DNA from: Chiloscyllium plagiosum
Taxonomy: Eukaryota
NCBI RefSeq assembly: GCF_004010195.1
Contig: NC_057758.1
Span: 2,046,029 to 2,110,028, forward strand
Direction of reading: 5' to 3'
DNA: 64,000 nucleotides
The first letter of the stretch is position 1, and each line of letters opens with the position of its first letter. Shown here in pieces: positions 3,775 through 58,369 of the stretch. The position numbers and the translations under genes are program-made. The notes beneath the pieces were generated by a model that worked only from the letters and a program-made list of their open reading frames with translations, was not told the origin of the DNA and did not search any database.

Positions 3775-4057
3775 AGCACCAACCCCTATCTCAGGGTAAC
3801 CCATCAATAATAAAATATTTCTGCTGATGGGAATTCGATTTTCTGGAAAAATAGCTGACTGGTCATTGAGTTTCCTCGTTGTCTTCTTGCTATAGTACAT
3901 TGTTTGCATTGAATGTCATCTTGAAAGGCTTTAAGTAATTAAGTACAGCTAATTCTGGGATTAATACCACATGGCCCAGGAATGTGAATTGGGCTATGGA
4001 GAATGCAGTCTTAGCCTGCCTCCCGTAGGAAATTGGGATATTCCATAAAATCTTCTA

Positions 4058-4405
4058 GGAGAAAGTGAGGACTGCAGATGCTGGAGATCCGAGCTGAAAA
4101 TGTGTTGTTGGTAAAGCGCAGCAGGTCAGGCAGCATCCAAGGAGCAGGAGAATCGACGTTTCGGGCATGAGCCCATCTTCAGGAATGAGGAAAGTGTGCC
4201 AAGCAAGCTAAGATAGAAGGACATGCAGGTCCTTGGACTCCTCCATCGCCAGAACATAACAACACGACGGCTGGAGGAAGAATGCCTCATCTTCTGCCTA
4301 GGAACCCTCCAACCACAAGGGATGAACTCAGATTTCTCCAGTTTCCTCATTTCCCCTCCCCTACCTTGTCTCAGTCCCAACCCTCGAACTCAGCACCACC
4401 TTCTT
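4058..4405. mobile_element. Penelope-like element family A: inverted pLTR (minus, 4058-4217) joined to GIY-YIG C-terminus and pLTR start (plus, 4218-4405)
   Basis: The plus ORF 4223 (QVLGLLHRQNITTRRLEEECLIFCLGTLQPQGMNSDF) resembles a PLE endonuclease C-terminus. The upstream segment is the reverse complement of about 70-190. An inverted 5' pLTR is typical of PLEs. Confidence 0.8.
4155..4182 (-). ncRNA. Minimal hammerhead ribozyme motif (PLE family A)
   Basis: Reverse complement is CTGAAGATGGGCTCATGCCCGAAACGTC, identical to 102-129. Confidence 0.7.
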
Positions 4406-9997: not shown

Positions 9998-10354
9998 TGA
10001 TTTCACCAGTTTCCTCATTTCCCCTCCCCCAGCCTGTCTCAGTCAAATCCATCAAATTCAGCACCGCCTTCCTAACCTGCAATCTTCTTCCCGACCTCTC
10101 CGCCCCCCCCAGTCTGACCTATCACCCTCACCTTGACCTCTTTCCACCTATCACATTTCCGACGCCCCTCCCCCAAGTCCCTCCTCCCTATCTTTTATCT
10201 TAGCCTGCTGGACCAACTTTCCTCATTCCTGAAGAAGGGCTAATGCCCGAAACGTCGATTGTCCTGTTCCCTAGATGCTGCCTGACCTGCTGCGCTTTTC
10301 CAGCAACACATTTCCATCTCTGATCTCCAGCATCTGCAGACCTCACTTTCTCCT
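9998..10354 (+). mobile_element. Solo Penelope-like pLTR (family A) with 11-bp TSD
   Basis: Flanked by direct repeat cactgaaatac (9987-9997 and 10355-10365). Contains an intact hammerhead core. Confidence 0.85.
10229..10256 (+). ncRNA. Minimal hammerhead ribozyme motif (PLE family A)
   Basis: CTGAAGA-a-GGGC(taat)GCCC-GAAA-cg-TC. The loop differs from 102-129 while the stem is conserved. Confidence 0.7.
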
Positions 10355-11714
10355 CACTGAAATACAATGCCAGGAAAAAAAACTCACTGGTTTTGAACGC
10401 AACTAATTTTAATTTGTCACGGTCGATATTAATGGTGTTTTTTTCAATGATGCCAGAAGTATTGTATGCGGTGCCATTCTTTGTATTTTGTATTATTTTG
10501 TGCAGAAACTTCATGTTGCTTCACCTCAGCTGCTGCACAAACATCGTAATTTCTGCTCTGAACCGAACCAACTTCAGGCAGCAGTTAAAGAATGCGCTTA
10601 AATATCCAGTTATTGAAATTAATCAGTAAATGGCGTTCACTAATCAATCATTTAATACAAGAGTTCCGCATTTTAATTCAAACATGCAGCATTTAAGCAG
10701 CCTATCGCTATGGTTACAGATTGATGGTAATGCTACATTGTTCAAGCGTATAAAATCCGGAGTCAGTGATAAAGACAACATTGCAATAATGCTGACTATA
10801 ATTAAATATTGTAAATAATAAAATACTGCTAATTAAAACTGCCAAACAGCAGATCTCACTACACTGCCCTTGCTTTCATCTTTGAGTTTAAAAAAACTCT
10901 AAACTCTAAACTCGATTAACCTTCCACTCATTGTCACAGCTGCACTGCAGACCTGTGTCTTCATTACACCTTTTCCCTTTTCTCCTGCCACTACCCGCAA
11001 TTTCCTTCCACACACATTCTGGTTCACGCTCTCCCTGTGAACTCTCTCAGTCTTGTCCATTCGGAATGTTTTCAATTTCTCCAGACGTCTATTTCTCTGG
11101 TCCGCTGTCTCTCTTCTGCCTTTCTCCTTTTTACGCCATCATTTTCTGCGATGTTCTCTCCCTCTAGATATCTATCACTTTCTTCCTCCCTTATGCCTTC
11201 TTTTGCATTTGCGACTTGCCTGCATTTTCTATCCATTCCGTTCCATGCTTCACTCTCTTTTTTTTTCTTTTTCCCTATCGCACTCTGTCTTCACCACTCT
11301 TTCCTTCTCTCTGTCCCTCAATTACACAGACAATTTCTTCAGAGCCATGTGGGTTGAGAATCCTGCTCTGCCATCACGAATGTTTTTCTTCAGGAGGCTA
11401 GATTCCTGTGTCGGCCGGACAGCGCCTTACTTTCCACAACACTTATTCACCCTGGTTTCGTTGAACATTCCCTTCTCTAATTTTACAGCGATTTCATCTG
11501 CCTTCCTGTGTTTGCTACCAATGTCGACAACACCACAATCTTTTAAAAAAAACATGTCAGCAATGCATTTACCAACTCAATCTTTGCATTTATAGCGATG
11601 TGCTTATCTATCTGGGCAGATATATCCTTGTGTGTCTGCTTGCATGAGATTTGTATGACTGTACGTTGGTTATTTCATATTGTCGTTTGTGTTTATAAGT
11701 CTGTTGTAGCGGTT

Positions 11715-13430: not shown

Positions 13431-14029
13431 AATGTGCCAAGGGAAAAACAAAACGACAGAACGTGCAGGAGAGAAAATTCCCGAGACAGCAGATAGAGGG
13501 AGAGAGAGACTTACTATCGTTTGCTTTTTGCTGATGGCCTTGGATGTTGTTCAGTAAACGTCAGCTCGAAGATTCTTCTGCCTTCTTCCTACGCAAAGGT
13601 CCTTGTTCCTTACATTCATGTATGCACGCTTGCAAAAATGGAACAGTTTCACAGTTGGCTCTCTTGAGTGGGGCAGGTTATAGCGATGGATCTTCTTTCA
13701 GTGGCAGGGGCAAGAAGCCGGTAAGGGCATCAGAATGCAGTGTCGATGAAAAAAGACATTCCACAGATTAGCTCTCTCTAATACCTCAACATCAGTGTCT
13801 TGTATAATCTTCCTTTCCTGCTCATTCATGGACCGTGGTGGCGCTTTCCAGTCCGGTATTAATCTCCCATGGCAAGCTACCCCTTGTCAGAATGTGGGCT
13901 TTGGGAAAGCGTGCCATTTTGAACTGCTGCAGCCACTCTCATGCCGGCAGGGCCATAATAAACCATCAGGGAGTGAATTGCAAGACTTTCACCCAGTGAC
14001 ACTGAAGGGATAACCAATATATAAGGTAT

Positions 14030-14717
14030 AGGTTTGCTCGCTGAGCTGTAGGTTTGATATCCAGAAGTTTCATTACCTAGCTAGGTAACATCATTAGTGG
14101 CGACCTCCAAGGGAAGCGAAGCTGTTGTCTCCTGCTTTCTATTTATATGTTTGTCTTGGATTGGGTTCCTGGGGTTTGTGGTGATGTCATTTCCTGTTCG
14201 TTTTCTGAGGGGTTGATCGATGGTGTTTGTTTATGGCGTTGTGGTTGGAGTGCCAGGCCTCTAGGAATTCTCTTGCATGTCTTTGCTTAGCCTGTCCCAG
14301 GATAAATGTGTTGTCCCAGTTCATCCATGTGTAGGGATACGAGGGAGAGAGGGTCGTGTCTTTTTCAGACAGACAGTTGCGCCTACTCTGAGCCGAAAGA
14401 GGGAAAGAATCAAACTGAACACAGAAGAAAGGAAATCCCTAGAAAACCTCAAAAAAGACAAAAACATTGTTATATTACCTGCAGACAAGGGTCGGTTCAC
14501 AGTCATCCTGAACAGAGGGGACGATATAGAGAAAGTCAAAAAACTACTCGCAGACACCAACACCTATCAACAGGTGGCGCTAGACCCGACCCCACAAATC
14601 GGAAACAAAATTACATATCTCCTAAGAAAATTACACAATTCCGGACAATTAAACAAGACGGGATTCCAGAAAATGCAACCGGATGGAACCAACACCCCAC
14701 AATTCTACGAACTACCA
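14030..14717. mobile_element. Penelope-like element: inverted GIY-YIG C-terminus and pLTR (minus, ~14030-14330) joined to RT N-terminal part (plus, ~14330-14717)
   Basis: Plus ORF has KNIVILPADKGRFTVILNR...LLADTNTYQQV..DPTP...TPQFYELP (PLE motifs PADKG and PxFYGLP). Minus strand has WDNTFILGQAKQRHAREFLEAWHS. Confidence 0.9.
14064..14097 (-). ncRNA. Hammerhead motif with a core mutation (PLE family D)
   Basis: Minus strand reads cca-CTaATGA-t-gttaccta(gc)taggtaat-GAAA-ct-TC-tgg. Stems I and II are intact; G5 is mutated, so it is probably inactive. Confidence 0.6.
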
Positions 14718-16674
14718 GAAAATCCTGAAAATGGGAAAAAAATGCGTGATTTCTCTAAAAGCTGAACTTCTTCTTTCGATGCTTAGACTTAAAACGCATC
14801 TCTGTGACCTGCTTTAATGTTTGCAGGAACACAGCGAGCCGTAATTGAAGCATTCTTTATTCAAATGTGAAGCAGTGGTTTTTCTCAATCCAAATAGCTC
14901 ATTAAGTTAAGCCAATCAAATTAAAACAGGCGCTAAGATAACAAACAAAACTACTAAATTTGCATCTGATAGATTTGATAACCTAGAACCAATCCGATTA
15001 TAAATATATCGAGATATCATCAATGGTATAAAAGATCACGGTATTTGGAAAACCGGGAATGTATTCAAGAAAGAAACCGGGAAAAATGCAACTGCCATCT
15101 GCCAAGAGGTAGCAGATTTCAGCTCTATGAGCAAGCACAATGTTTTACAGGTGCAAATTGATTACCTTAGAAATACAGAGGCACATCTTCTCTTTGATCT
15201 AGAATTCCTTCAGATTTATAACATACAAACTGTTTGTCTGGCGTTGTGGAGGGTTGATACTGGAACTGATGAATAAAAAACAGAATTTCACGTTGGGATT
15301 GAAGAGAATGGTTTACATTTGCAGACATGTAAAATGGTCAAAAAAAACAAAAGTATCCTGCTTGAATCACCAGATGTACAGCAGAGTTAATGATGCCCAA
15401 TCTTGAGAAAGAATGTGAAGACCCAAGGATAACCTTCTGTCCATTCTTGTAGTTTTCCAGTTCTTGATGTTAGATTTTGATCCATTGTTGGACGATTTAA
15501 ATTGGTTGCTGGCTGTTTCTGATTTCTTCTCTCTCCGGAGCTGGTGAGCTTGCCAATTTTTGTTTATTGGTGATGCACGACTGATAATGTAGGATAACAC
15601 ACTGAAATTAGCCCCTTTGAATAGAACAGTGATGCGATCCAGTGAGAATATCGTGATTCATGGAGACTAGCAATAGCACGACCGCTGAACAAACAGGTGA
15701 AGCAAACTCCTTCTAATAAATCACATGAAAGCAGAACATTTTCCTGAGCTGGATGTCGTATGTATAAGTGTCGTAATGGAAAGAAATGTTGGCAAGGCAG
15801 TATGATTCACAATAATCTCATTATTATAAAATTAGCGAAAGTAATATAAGAGAGGTAAAAAATCAGGACGCGAGTAGTTAGGATCTGGAATCCACTGCCT
15901 ATGAATGTGTAGGAGGCATGTCTACTTGAAGCATTCGAGAGGGCTTTGGTGATTATTTGGGTACAATTAATGTTCACGGATACTAGGAGAATACAGGATA
16001 TTGGGACGAGGTAATGATTTTCTTTGAAGAGTCAGTGCATGCACAATGCAATGAATAGCTTCTTTCTGTGCCAAACGTTTCCGTGGTTATATGATTATTT
16101 AGTTCACCATGATTATTAAATTACTTTATCGTGCCACTCCTTGGGCTGTAACCTGTCCATGAGATGAGTTTTGTCTTTGTGAATTTTGTCATCAGCTGCT
16201 GCGAGGCTGCAGTGCTCAATTGTATAATTGCATAATTGTATAATTGTAACATTGTCAACCATCAAGCTTTAAACTTCCTGAGAGTTTTGTTCAAACTGCG
16301 ACTACACACACTGTAATGTTAATTCACGTCCTCTGCTTGCCACTGATTGCATTTATTGCTTATTCCCAGTAAACTGAAAGAAGATAGTGGTGCTCTGGAA
16401 TTTCGAAATGCTGCAATCCATTGGCGCTGGCACACACAGAATACTGAAAAAATACGAAAAAGTTGAAGGTTCTGGAAATTAGAAGCAAAAACAATACTCA
16501 CTGCAAATTCTCACCAATTGTGGAGAGTAATCTGAGTGAAAGATTTAAGTTCAGTAACCATTCAACAGAACTGATCATGTATGGGTTTTATGCAGAAGAC
16601 ATGTTTGGGACAGGGGTGTTGGAATAAATGACAAAGCGCAAAAAGACAGACCAGCTACCAGAAAAGGAGATAAG

Positions 16675-31101: not shown

Positions 31102-31689
31102 CGACCAAAATAAAAATAACGTTCGATAATTTTGTCAAAAAACACGGGAACGTTGAAAATTTGCGGTCAATTGAAATTGGGCTTTATAAAGATAAGTTTT
31201 CCCCATGGATCCTGGTGACTCGCCCTTGACAGCTGCGATATTAAAGAGGTAGGTTTGCAAATGTGCATGAGTTGAGTTTGCAAATTATAAATGTGCAGAT
31301 GTCGTTTTATACAAGTGTTGATAAAAAGGAAGGCTGTGACAATTTGGAGCCAGAGATTGACAGAACATGAAATTAATAAACCCCAATAATTTTGAAATTC
31401 CTGGACTGTATTCACGAGTGTTTTGAGAAATATTGCGACGGGGAAGGAACCTCGTAGAAATTTATAAAATTCGAACAGGACTGGATAGTATAAGCAGGAT
31501 AGGAATCTCACGAAAAGTAGCGATTCCAGCCGGTCACTGTCTAAGCATCTAGTGTTGGATGGAAATGAGGAAAACGTCTTCAGCTCGGGAATGTTGAGTC
31601 TGTGGACTTGTTTTCAAGAGAAAGAGTTTGAGACTAAAATACAGACTGTTTTCAGGATGGAGTTACATAAAGTTGCAAGGACTTAAGGG

Positions 31690-31832
31690 AGTCGAGAGTG
31701 TGGTGCTGGAAAAGCACATCAGGTCAGGCAGCATCTGAGAAGCAGGATAATCGATGTCTTGGGCATAAGCCTTTCAACATGAATCTGTCGAAGGAAATAT
31801 GCCCGAAATGGCGATTCTCCTGCTTCCCAGAT
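31690..31832. mobile_element. Head-to-head inverted pair of decayed family A pLTR ends
   Basis: atctgagaagcaggataatcgat...gggcata and tatgccc...cgattctcctgcttcccagat are mutually reverse complementary. Confidence 0.65.
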
Positions 31833-32114: not shown

Positions 32115-32272
32115 GGAGATAGTGAGGACTGCACAGGTTGGAGATCAGAGTCGAAAGTGTGAGGCTGAAAAAACACCACATGGCAGGCAGCATCTGAGAA
32201 GCAGGAGAATCGATGTCTTGGGCATAAGCCTTTCATCATGAATCTGTCGAAGGAAATATGCCCGAAATGGCG
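32115..32272. mobile_element. Second copy of the same inverted family A pLTR junction
   Basis: Shares the junction catgaatctgtcgaaggaaatatgcccgaaatggcg with 31778-31813. Confidence 0.65.
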
Positions 32273-44807: not shown

Positions 44808-46159
44808 TTACACGTGTGTTGTTCGTCCCTCGAACTCTAGAAGCATTCTTTGACTTTCTCTTTGTTGCATATCACCTGCTGATTGTAAAAGCATCTGATG
44901 ATTTATTTGGGTTCCTTCCACAAGGGATGTCATCAGTAGGCTCATTACCCATTTTAGGACATTGAACCCTACCACTGGACCCACTAATATCAATAATCCA
45001 TAGATAGCTATATTGACTAACCACCTTCCCCAACCAGTCAATCCCCAATTCACCCATTTCCTTTTTCGTTCCAGTACCGATTACCGGCCTCCCTTACCTT
45101 GATGATTTTGTCTCACACATATTTGCAGATATCAGTAATGTTAAAAGAGACCTCAGGTATGTACGTACAACATTCCTCTCCAATTAGTGCACAGGTACCA
45201 CCCTTCTCTGCTAGAGTATAGTCCAGAGCCATCCTGTTGTGAAGATTCGTTAGCCTAGTGGCAATCATTTTGGTCGTTATGGCTGCAACTTGGGATTGGG
45301 TTTCAGCCAACGCATCAGCAGTATTGTGGGCCAACTCTTCCAGGGAAGCCACTAACTTTTGTATTTCTACTCCTGCTCGAGTGGTCCCATACATAGGTAT
45401 CAAAGTCCAGAGGAGGCGGTCTCGTTCAGTTACTTTCCGAGTTACTCGCATTCCTCCCTGTTTATTCCGAAGTATTTTTGGGCCTCTCTTTAACAGCCTC
45501 AAGTAGGGAATTATATATGCGAGGTAGCAGCAGCCACTCCAGCCTTTCTGGCTTTGAGGCAGTATTTGATCAACATCATAACATGCATGCATTCCTATAC
45601 ATTCAGTCACGCGAATGTATTTCGCCCCGGGAATAAATGGATAGGCCTTCAGGCCGCATACCCAATATGTTCCGTTTAATATTTGGTAAAAGGTTGTGGC
45701 TGAGGCTTGGCTGGTGTAGACACAAGATGATTTTCCTAATTGGAAGGGTGCGGTATCATTCTGATTACATCATTCTGATTACAGAAACAAGTGGTATTTA
45801 CTGCTCCTTTCGGGGGGAAACTCTAAGGCCATCAATAGCACCCAGAGTTTTCGGGACTGGTCGAGGGAACCAACCCGCAGTTATAATTACCCCTTTCAAA
45901 TCTCCAAGTCGTATCATTTGAGCACGAGTCAAATTGTTGTACATCGTACACTTCTCTTTTGGTAAGTGGTATTACCGTGAGAGGAATTCCGGATTTCCCA
46001 TGGTGTGGGATCTCAGCACATACCGAACAGTCGGTATGTCCCTTTAGTTTAGCATAATTCTGACATAAAGCGGTAAAATGATTTTTCCCACACCCCCCCA
46101 CCCCCCACCCCGGCAGCTGGCGCCAATATTATCGTGACAATATAAAATTGACCATTCAT
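44808..46159 (-). pseudogene. env: ERV gamma-type envelope (SU and TM), frameshifted
   Basis: Signal-like MNGQFYIVTIILAPAAG; SU CxxC motif TDCSVC; furin-like RVTR; immunosuppressive-domain-like LHNRMALDYTLAEKGGT; CX6CC (CALIGEECC); membrane anchor WLVNIAIYGLLILVGPVVGFNVL. Confidence 0.92.
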
Positions 46160-46278
46160 TTCAGCTCACAACCCTATCTGTCTATTCCATAACACTTTAA
46201 ATACCAGGGAGGAAGGAGTCCATGCAACACTTACAATTGTTTTGGGATACAGTTTTTTAACCAATCCTTAATAGTCTC

Positions 46279-47380
46279 TTATCTCAGTCCATTCTTTTTG
46301 CTCAGCTTGATTTTCAGAGGGTTGTCTGTAGGATGTGCGTGCCATTCTGCCGGAGGGGAAGGAGCGTCCACCGGGCCCTTAGCACAAGTGTGATGACTCC
46401 GCCCTTTTTCAGCAGTTCGGACGGCTGTTTCAGCAGTCAGTAGGAACGGTCCCTCCCAGCTTGGGTGCAGATTAGTATCTTTCCAGGTCTTTATCAGGAC
46501 CCAATCACCCGTTTGTATCCGATGTACTGCGAACTCAAGTGGAGGTGTCTGGGTCAACAGACCCTTCTTTCGAAGGACATACAAAGAAGAGCCGAGCGCC
46601 ACAATATAGTTCTTTAAAAACTTATCATTGAACTCTACAGTTAGTAATTCCCCCCTTCCATACAAGAAAGGTAATCCAAACATCATCTCATAAGGAGATA
46701 GGCCTATATCACGTCTAGGCGCAGTCCTAATGCGTACTAACGCGATAGGTAAACATTTTATCCATGGTAGTCGAGTATCTAGGACTAGATTAGACAATTG
46801 CTTCTTTAAGGTTTGATTCATTAGTTCCACCCGTCCAGAGGAAGGCAGATGACAAGGGGTGTGGAATTCCCAAGAGATTTCTAATCCCGCCATTACCTCT
46901 TGTAGGATCTTAGAGGTAAAATAGCTACCTTGGTCTGAATCTATACTTTCCACCAGTCCATATCCAGGAATTATATGTTCTAAAAGAGTTTTCACTACTC
47001 CCTTCGAGGTAGCTGAGGACATTGGAAATGCCTCCACCCACCCAGTTCGGTGATCCATTAGGCGTAATAAGTACTTTTGTTTCCCTAGTGGGGGTAATTC
47101 TATGTAATCTACCTGTATTCTTTGAAAAGGTGTTACCCCAGGGTTTCTTCCACCTCTTACACCCCCCCCCCCCGTTACTTTCTTATTAATCTTTTGGCAA
47201 GTCGGGCATCCTGCTCATACCTGCTTGGCTAATGTGTATATCCCTTTACATCCGTACTTCCTTAACACTGTGTCACACATAGCTTGGGAGCACCAATGAC
47301 TGCCTTGGTGCAAGGTGGTTATGATGTTTCTCATGACTGGTTTACTTAATAACTCCCTTCCATCCGGAAAATACATATTC
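46279..47380 (-). pseudogene. pol: ERV pol, integrase region (class I, gamma/epsilon-like)
   Basis: HHCC (HQGSH...CPTC, with an in-frame stop just before the Cys pair); D,D,E triad in IQVDY, IDSDQG and GRVELMN; LSPYEMMFG; GPY/F module GDWVLIK...WEGPF. Confidence 0.95.
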
Positions 47381-54370: not shown

Positions 54371-54870
54371 NNNNNNNNNNNNNNNNNNNNNNNNNNNNNN
54401 NNNNNNNNNNNNNNNNNNNNNNNNNNNNNNNNNNNNNNNNNNNNNNNNNNNNNNNNNNNNNNNNNNNNNNNNNNNNNNNNNNNNNNNNNNNNNNNNNNNN
54501 NNNNNNNNNNNNNNNNNNNNNNNNNNNNNNNNNNNNNNNNNNNNNNNNNNNNNNNNNNNNNNNNNNNNNNNNNNNNNNNNNNNNNNNNNNNNNNNNNNNN
54601 NNNNNNNNNNNNNNNNNNNNNNNNNNNNNNNNNNNNNNNNNNNNNNNNNNNNNNNNNNNNNNNNNNNNNNNNNNNNNNNNNNNNNNNNNNNNNNNNNNNN
54701 NNNNNNNNNNNNNNNNNNNNNNNNNNNNNNNNNNNNNNNNNNNNNNNNNNNNNNNNNNNNNNNNNNNNNNNNNNNNNNNNNNNNNNNNNNNNNNNNNNNN
54801 NNNNNNNNNNNNNNNNNNNNNNNNNNNNNNNNNNNNNNNNNNNNNNNNNNNNNNNNNNNNNNNNNNNNNN
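54371..54870. other. Assembly gap (500 N)
   Basis: Run of N. The round length suggests a placeholder size. Confidence 1.
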
Positions 54871-57075: not shown

Positions 57076-57740
57076 AGACACTTGCAATCAAACTAAATAA
57101 CATTTATCTCTGTAGTAACATGATGGCTTTATAACTAATTATCTGGTCTCTACATTTGTTTGAAAGCAATCATCTATTGCAAACTCCTGACATTTTATGG
57201 CCAAAAAACGATCCTGGAAGACAATATTGAATCACCCTGTCCAAAAAATGCAGTTCACAGAGCCACGTTTCCACTCGTGACTTTCTGAAGCATGACTGAG
57301 AACATAGCTCATGATGACTTAATAAAATTCGCTTAGAGCTGAACTTCTAATTGAATGTTAGTATTTAATTACATTACATTTGCTTTCTTTATATGAAATA
57401 ATGCGGGGTTTGAGGAACAACATCATGACTGTTAGAATGACCGTTGCAAATATTTCAAAACCAGTCACAAAAAATGTGTGCAGTATTGATATCGAGATGG
57501 TTTCACAGAATTATTACTTATTAGCGTAAGCTCTGACGTTCGGGTCGAAAACGTTAATCACGTTTTGCTAGAAGTGTTCAATATTCATGAGGTGGTAACA
57601 GCTCACGACCATTGTAAAATTTCAGTGAATATCCTGAAATCTGACATTATAATGAACAGATTGGTTTTGATAAGGCACAAGGTGTTCTGTGGACATACTA
57701 AACTGTTGTGGTTCTGTTCGCCGAGCTGGAAATGTTTTTT

Positions 57741-57780
57741 GCAAACTTTTCGTCCCCTGTCTCGGTGACATCCTCAGTGC
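57741..57780 (-). ncRNA. Hammerhead motif, left arm (PLE family C)
   Basis: Minus strand reads gca-CTGAGGA-t-gtcacc(gagaca)ggggac-GAAA-ag-TT-tgc. Core is intact; the palindromic CG loop is changed to AG. Confidence 0.65.
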
Positions 57781-57874
57781 TTGGGAGCCTCCTGTGAAGC
57801 GCTTCTGTGGTGTTTCCTCCGGCATTTAAATGCCGGAGGAAACACCACAGAAGCGCTTCACAGGAGGCTCCCAA

Positions 57875-57914
57875 GCACTGAGGATGTCACCTAGACAGGG
57901 GACGAAGCGTTTGC
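57875..57914 (+). ncRNA. Hammerhead motif, right arm (PLE family C)
   Basis: gca-CTGAGGA-t-gtcacct(agac)aggggac-GAAg-cg-TT-tgc. Stem I gca/tgc; A15.1 is changed to G. Confidence 0.65.
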
Positions 57915-58369
57915 AACAAAACTTTCCAGCTCGGCGAACAGAACCACAACAACGAGCACCCGAGCTACAAATCTTCACCCAAACTTTGAACATACTAAAC
58001 TTTCCCAGGACAACCTCTCATGGTATTGGAGGGATGAAAGGTCTAGTGCCAGAAAACGACATTTTCCTTTCTTGGGCTGGGAAGATAGACGTCTCGCGCT
58101 GTGCCTTGTCCCTTATTCTTTGACTGTAATCACAAATGTATCTCAATTTTGTATGAAATATTACTTTTATGCTTGAAGACATGTCCTCACTTCCAAAATG
58201 TGGTTTGATCTTTTTGGATGAGATAAAGATTGTGATTATTTTAGAAGCCAAAGAGTACGGACATATCGTAAGACGAACGGCTGTGCATAACCAATTGCTG
58301 TAAAACTGTCATTTGTTTGCAATGTCGACGGTGTGGACTTCTGGGATGTAAACTGGCTGTGTATCTTGT

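Follow-up and report, generated by a model that had tools for sequence, protein, structure and literature searches.

The palindrome at positions 57693–58001 of the window, the 64-kb stretch of shark DNA analyzed here, is best explained as two truncated pLTR ends of an abundant Penelope-like element (PLE) that lie head to head within a 12-bp duplication. We assign a probability of roughly 0.83 to this reading, under which the locus is likely a single abortive insertion and is probably inert now. The locus is a clean example of an insertion anatomy already published for PLEs.

Direct comparison of the two arms bore out the palindrome that had been proposed for this locus. Positions 57705–57827 and 57828–57950 are reverse complements of 123 bp each (124 bp if the T57704/A57951 pair is included) with zero spacer. 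They differ at six positions, which in right-arm coordinates are 57892, 57907, 57908, 57917, 57921, and 57922. All six fall within the outer 59 bp, five of them are transversions, and the inner 64 bp contain no mismatch (P = 0.011 for a clean run anchored at the center and 0.075 for one anywhere). The 12-mer ACATACTAAACT at 57693–57704 recurs as a perfect direct repeat at 57990–58001, and the unit in between measures 285 bp. Insertion as one unit with a probable 12-bp target-site duplication, as originally predicted, is supported, although that description conceals an asymmetry: 39 bp are present on the right side only and separate the right arm from the duplication. The predicted RNA fold of the unit reaches −243 kcal/mol (z = −35), with none of 100 shuffles equally good. 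Metagenomes scanned for a 39-nt right-arm segment gave no matches. A DNA-transposon MITE was rejected on account of the tail between right arm and duplication and of arms that come from a retroelement ORF; CRISPR-like or viroid-like RNA was likewise rejected as the identity of the unit.

Table 1. Features assigned to the palindromic insertion (positions in the window).
Feature	Position	Strand	Remarks
Left copy of presumed 12-bp target-site duplication	57693..57704	+	Identical to 57990–58001; an X1 contig crosses from flank into arm
Left arm: inverted, 5′-truncated pLTR copy lacking the tail	57705..57827	-	Reverse complement of 57828–57950; frame matches
Minimal hammerhead, left arm	57741..57780	-	Core intact; 15.2 changed, with loss of the palindromic CG for dimer stem III
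Head-to-head junction	57822..57833		TA at 57827–57828 is common to both orientations and lies within the TATAAA-like run of the family
Right arm: forward 5′-truncated pLTR copy	57828..57950	+	Last 21 codons of the PLE ORF overlap the start of the next ORF
Minimal hammerhead, right arm	57875..57914	+	G in place of core A15.1 (57907); cleavage predicted after 57911
Start of the RT ORF of the element	57884..57991	+	ATG at foot of stem II; truncated after 36 codons where the insertion ends
39-bp PLE tail, at a single end only	57951..57989	+	Family ends pile up at both its sides
Right copy of presumed 12-bp target-site duplication	57990..58001	+	X1 contig 57966–58350, 0 differences

Translated matches identify each arm as the ORF-end/pLTR/ORF-start region of a single autonomous PLE family encoding RT and GIY-YIG domains. 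Two reading frames overlap within the arm. The frame at 57830–57991 matches residues 1–54 of P0009 (50/54 identical, 93%), a 656-aa predicted protein of Chiloscyllium punctatum that contains the DKG motif of PLE RTs and matches Pfam RVT_1 (E 3.9e-11). On the left arm, translation in the second frame gives 83% identity to the P0013 C-terminus, the best real match of four. P0013 itself extends from the RT thumb across the endonuclease region, and where it overlaps P0009 the two agree at 48/53 residues. Both frames can also be followed on the left arm, where the P0009 start is 90% identical over 41 aa and the P0013 end 81% identical over 42 aa. These matches support the proposed PLE origin and connect the family with an RT/GIY-YIG ORF, a connection on which the original proposal depended. 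The description of the unit as protein-free calls for a qualification: the arms consist of the last ~21 and first 36 codons of the element's ORF, the stop codon TAG lies in hammerhead loop II, and the two ends of the unit fall at +67 and +106 from ATG 57884.

P0013 has no Pfam match at E ≤ 0.1. Its relatives P0005 and P0006 give weak GIY-YIG matches (E 0.0027 and 0.024) below the gathering score, and the putative endonuclease assignment draws on motifs together with these weak matches of relatives. Pfam searches of four fragments of the window returned irrelevant weak matches or none; identity came from database relatives, of which the nearest named proteins come from carpet sharks (Chiloscyllium, Stegostoma, and Hemiscyllium). 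The proteins P0012, P0014, and P0015 (34–39% identity) were set aside as low-complexity, P0014 being repeat-rich. Separately, the predicted shark host proteins P0001–P0004 and P0010 end in C-terminal stretches derived from PLE endonuclease or pLTR sequence, and are either gene-model artifacts or exonized PLE ends.

Sequencing runs were placed on 57350–58350, comprising DNA runs X1 and X5 (organism A) and X10 (organism B), of which 84%, all, and 65% were read, and about 2% of one poly(A) single-cell RNA run, X21. The three DNA runs yielded 8771, 13895, and 8931 contig records, respectively. Almost all of them fell on the unit, where summed depths (which are no copy numbers) were 1e5–3e6 versus ~20 on the flanks. 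The PLE family is clearly present in great abundance in both species. Upstream of 57827/57828, contigs and reads of the family continue into ordinary pLTR ending CCACTA, with 60+25 loose contig ends in X1 and 75 loose read ends in X21; when translated, this upstream sequence continues the P0013 frame. Family DNA ends pile up at 57989/57990 (124 contigs in X1, with AT-rich neighbors), and family RNA read ends at 57952/57953 and 57988/57990. The end of the left arm is the mirror of 57950/57951. The ends of the unit are the family's long 3′ end (57989/90) and its short end (~57950–57953), 39 bp apart, and the right-side extra with its paired end sites is the signature of a PLE tail. Family RNA is strand-biased (~200 versus 22 reads), the majority strand likely being sense.

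The locus itself is represented in X1. One contig (57350–57725, depth 20.9) runs from the left flank into the left arm by 21 bases with two differences, both in the flank, and another (57966–58350, depth 19.6) runs from the tail through the right flank with none. Given that these are independent contigs at flank depth, both outer junctions, which have opposite orientation, are real. A wholly artifactual fold-back was rejected. No empty allele was seen in X1, which holds the insertion; X5 and X10 have no coverage of the junctions, and the flanks were not seen in organism B (X10).

This arrangement closely follows what has been described for PLEs. Insertions typically carry an inverted 5′-truncated copy and a 30–40-bp tail (Craig et al. 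2021, PMC8557442), an anatomy also described in PMC8969392, and inverted pLTRs, tails, 8–10-bp duplications, and abundant palindromes at inverted junctions have been reported (Arkhipova et al. 2013, PMC3846280). The unit shares with those of PMC8557442 and PMC3846280 the forward and inverted 5′-truncated copies set head to head, the tail at one end, a short presumed target duplication, the junction palindrome, and a pLTR that includes the first ORF codons. It departs from them in that both copies are shorter than one pLTR, the whole insert is palindrome, and the spacer is zero; its duplication is also 12 bp long, versus 8–10 bp in the rotifer examples (PMC3846280). A second likeness is to the Poseidon element PAc of Anolis carolinensis, in which the ORF also has its ATG at the base of hammerhead stem II and the main site lies at 111–118; the shark unit has two ends within the beginning of the ORF, at +67 and +106, separated by the length of the tail (PMC11167929). 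The anole protein nicks and extends both strands, and its two RT start sites lie on either side of the tail (Frangieh et al. 2024, PMC11167929). PAc is a full, active element, whereas the unit is a 285-bp remnant. Assignment of the shark family to the Penelope/Poseidon clade, in which a zinc-finger-like linker is lacking, rather than to Neptune/Nematis is tentative; the ATG is placed as in PAc, and by eye the P0013 linker has a single Cys. Animal non-LTR retrozymes are, like the unit, short, hammerhead-bearing, PLE-derived, and without a full ORF (Li, Clavereau, Pollet, bioRxiv 10.64898/2026.07.22.740005). This identity was rejected because retrozymes consist of units repeated head to tail, each with a type I hammerhead, and carry both motifs on the same strand, whereas the locus holds head-to-head partial units. 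In our literature searches we found no paper on this shark PLE family and no direct treatment of a shark PLE hammerhead or of twin priming with Penelope, although the supplement of metazoan motifs in PMC4209133 may include a shark one.

By analogy with anole Poseidon, the endonuclease may have cut the two target strands at nicks offset by 12 nt. The two resulting 3′ ends would then have served as primers for reverse transcription, each at a different one of the two internal start sites that flank the tail. Each presumed primer ends in T opposite a template A. The unit ends on two family end sites, as expected if both nicked strands prime at the start sites seen in vitro for the anole protein. 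Synthesis of cDNA would have broken off prematurely in the pLTR's AT run; there, a cDNA end could have snapped back or annealed through the self-complementary TA/TTTAAA to leave a center without spacer, and repair would have filled in the remainder; this order of strand events is a reconstruction. The hammerheads would have traveled as passengers of the pLTR, each acquiring its lesion afterwards.

The step at which the two copies become joined admits two routes, snap-back and twin priming; this part of PLE transposition is called unresolved in PMC8557442, PMC11167929, and PMC3846280. Twin priming is known from L1 elements. A center formed from two independently truncated cDNAs in this twin-priming-like manner, on two RNA templates and with symmetry by chance, is possible but doubtful here. 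It would be consistent with both ends lying at family end sites, with the 57763/57892 arm difference, which is a common family variant, and with the anole protein, a predicted dimer that extends both strands (PMC11167929). Joints with offsets from perfect symmetry of up to 90–97 nt also exist, and among those listed the offsets span 0–97 nt. It is nevertheless improbable that two cDNAs would stop independently at one and the same base, and such palindromes have been interpreted as products of self-priming (PMC3846280). Near-symmetric joints moreover appear over-represented: 8 of 15 lie within 15 nt of symmetry, compared with 28% expected for independent ends (binomial tail 0.034), and 5 of 15 lie within 9 nt (tail 0.11), in a weak, post hoc count limited to the best-supported rows, namely 14 joints of the main list plus one further. 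Excluded from this count were a forward deletion (57917>57952), a go-back joint (57940>57885), 57728>57937 (offset +10), and 57800>57938 (+83). The excess leans toward snap-back, to which we give slightly more than half of the weight, with a quarter for pure twin priming and the rest for assembly or other effects. A single locus matters little, and its modest value is mechanistic. Carpet-shark genomes offer very many junctions of this family, whose offsets, tallied genome-wide, would discriminate between snap-back and twin priming.

The original prediction regarded the palindrome as a mini-PLE. In the sense of a distinct element moving as a unit, this view finds no support in the same joints. 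Among the best 15 of 42 joints, 14 run from left arm to right arm, and no two of these share a breakpoint pair. Of the 11 X1 joints among those listed, 9 have depths of 18.7–28.9, like the single-copy flanks. Since joints of the family thus occur at many different points and mostly at single-copy depth, the locus is likely a one-off product rather than a mobile mini-element. A symmetric joint (offset 0) and near-symmetric ones occur at other loci in independent contigs, and the zero-spacer palindrome is one end of a continuum of junctions. Among the joints listed, one is common to X1 and X5 and three to X1 and X10, as would be the case for old fixed insertions.

That the PLE machinery copied the palindrome as a non-autonomous element is, on this evidence, quite improbable. 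The unit is compact and duplication-flanked, and it includes the beginning of the ORF, a region on which binding and priming by the anole protein depend (PMC11167929); pLTRs can also act in cis for trans-mobilization (PMC3846280). Three joints are deep, two in X1 (depths 101 and 189) and one in X10 (114), at 57740>57929, 57810>57892, and 57731>57909; they may be present in several copies, or the depth may result from short contigs. Apart from the scatter and depth of the family joints, however, contigs at 57827/57828 continue into ordinary pLTR, a transcript of the unit would form a 120-bp duplex hiding the priming site, and no second copy of the 285-bp unit lies within the 64-kb window. A broader form of the idea, in which some shark PLE head-to-head stubs, this one included, are recopied whole by the RT/endonuclease and form a hairpin class that seeds dsRNA against the parent element, has similarly slim odds. 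The three deep joints, at 5–10× single-copy depth, would be members of that recopied palindromic class. Recopied units, or a real small-RNA source, would amount to a new non-autonomous class, and the evidence leans against it.

The abortive-insertion reading does not by itself account for the clean inner 64 bp, which would call for later arm-to-arm correction or an assembly effect. Correction between arms near the centers of palindromes is known, and either it or assembly smoothing could produce both the clean inner segment and the excess of transversions. We consider it unlikely that the insertion is real but that its zero spacer and 64 clean bp arose during assembly or polishing under the influence of a high-copy repeat. 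The confinement of all arm differences to the outer segment, with their bias to transversions, would agree with such shaping, as would the 500-N scaffold gap (54371–54870, 2.8 kb upstream of the palindrome) that marks a scaffolded assembly, and structures of this kind trouble short-read assemblies (PMC8557442). No contig among those listed bridges 57827/57828, and the exact zero-spacer center and clean inner 64 bp are known from the window's assembly alone. Arguing the other way are the two outer junctions in X1 contigs at flank depth and the symmetric and near-symmetric joints at other loci, and arm-to-arm correction offers an alternative.

Each arm carries a hammerhead motif of the form GCA-CTGAGGA-T-stem II-GAAn-nG-TT-TGC, and the letters of both arms corroborate the claim that the two copies bear distinct lesions. 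Compared with the core (C3 U4 G5 A6 G8 A9, G12 A13 A14, A15.1-U16.1, H17), the right arm deviates at 15.1, where it has G (57907), and the left arm is intact. A G at 15.1 cripples the hammerhead core. The left-arm lesion is an A at 15.2 (57747); positions 15.2-16.2 read AG on the left and CG on the right, and neither arm combines a palindromic 15.2-16.2 with a full core. Across the family, position 57907 is A in 404366/406173 of the summed depth in X1, in >99% of it in X1, X5, and X10 alike, and in 214/218 RNA reads, and the place of 57747 is mostly C (11271/14918 in X1, among contigs placed on the left arm). The majority letters satisfy the hammerhead core and, with A15.1 and C15.2, vindicate the reconstruction of an ancestral GAAACGTT. 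Among the rows listed, family variation spares the core and affects N7, loop II, 11.1, and H17 (T or C).

As in published minimal hammerheads, the motifs have a short stem I, an extra base between 9 and 10.1, and G10.1-C11.1; the common layout also comprises a palindromic 15.2-16.2 and a predicted dimer (PMC4209133). They are unlike them in that each local copy is lesioned, stem I has only 3 bp, and stem II contains an internal A-G mismatch. Dual minimal hammerheads on opposite strands, 100–700 bp apart, have precedent (Cervera and De la Pena 2014, PMC4209133). Back to back as they stand, the motifs, at 57878 (+) and 57777 (−), are on opposite strands with no two on one RNA strand, and they cannot form the cis dimer that such motifs need. 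Minimal hammerheads are described as inactive when monomeric and of low activity when dimeric (PMC4209133). The isolated motifs fold no better than shuffles (z 0.49 and 0.29), and a hammerhead-like fold lacking stem III lies 0.8–2.3 kcal/mol above the best fold of the 40-mers, a trivial difference compared with the −238 kcal/mol hairpin discussed below. No Rfam hammerhead match at E ≤ 1 was found anywhere in the 64 kb. Both motifs at the locus are probably inert, and self-cleavage is unlikely because each motif is lesioned and any one transcript holds a single motif in sense, paired to its own antisense copy. The X21 reads showed no accumulation of RNA ends that would mark cleavage, in a fragmented poly(A) library not suited to revealing one. 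For anole Poseidon, hammerhead cleavage is unnecessary for insertion in vitro and requires the protein (PMC11167929).

A read-through transcript from either strand has a predicted hairpin of −238 kcal/mol and would fold into a long duplex that buries the single sense hammerhead; the corresponding DNA hairpin is predicted at −154 kcal/mol. Palindromes with AT-rich centers can extrude cruciforms. The hairpin RNA, its feeding of Dicer or ADAR, and the cruciform that were envisaged for this locus are physically plausible conjectures. It is nonetheless highly improbable that the locus has been co-opted as a source of hairpin RNA (endo-siRNA, microRNA, or ADAR substrate) and that such a role keeps the inner arm perfect. 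Besides the stable hairpin and the mismatch-free inner 64 bp, the production of small RNAs by rotifer Penelope copies (PMC3846280) lends the idea some appeal. In the ~2% of X21 that was read, however, no RNA read fell on either flank and none of the 426 placed reads contained a joint, 95% of them continuing into unlike sequence. Rfam gave four generic microRNA-hairpin matches, including mir-5856 and mir-1343, all below gathering scores (54 bits versus 90), and the absence of the flanks from X10 also weighs against co-option.

Several other repeats share the window with the palindrome. At 14020–14364 (−) lies a related PLE end with a GIY-YIG C-terminus, a pLTR, and a hammerhead at 14097, joined head to head at ~14365 to an RT fragment (14367–14720, +) that is 49% identical to P0009. 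A decayed 5′-truncated PLE at 1552–2775 (−) retains the RT end, GIY-YIG, and a hammerhead at 1634, and is 53–54% identical to Stegostoma P0005/P0006. The 14-kb remnant showed no flanking duplication, and the repeats next to the 1.6-kb one were 8–9-mers at chance level. Positions 31689–31832 hold decayed head-to-head hammerhead-like ends of a second repeat family, with arms 73% alike; the pair recurs at 32148–32272, 459 bp apart and 91% identical, likely as a local duplication. The joins at ~14365 and 31689–31832 thus show the head-to-head habit again within the window. A scan for hammerhead-like motifs gave 10 sites in the window, some probably due to chance, and single repeats with hammerhead-like cores (CTGA.GA, a stem, and GAAACGTC or GAAAGCTA) occur at 58–189, 1012–1129, 4057–4219, 10185–10360, and 30991. 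The window is otherwise animal DNA rich in LINE-type RT remnants, and at 45113–47214 (−) it contains a retroviral remnant with integrase (Pfam rve, E 9.5e-13, and MLVIN_C) and envelope (TLV_coat, E 4.8e-07) matches.
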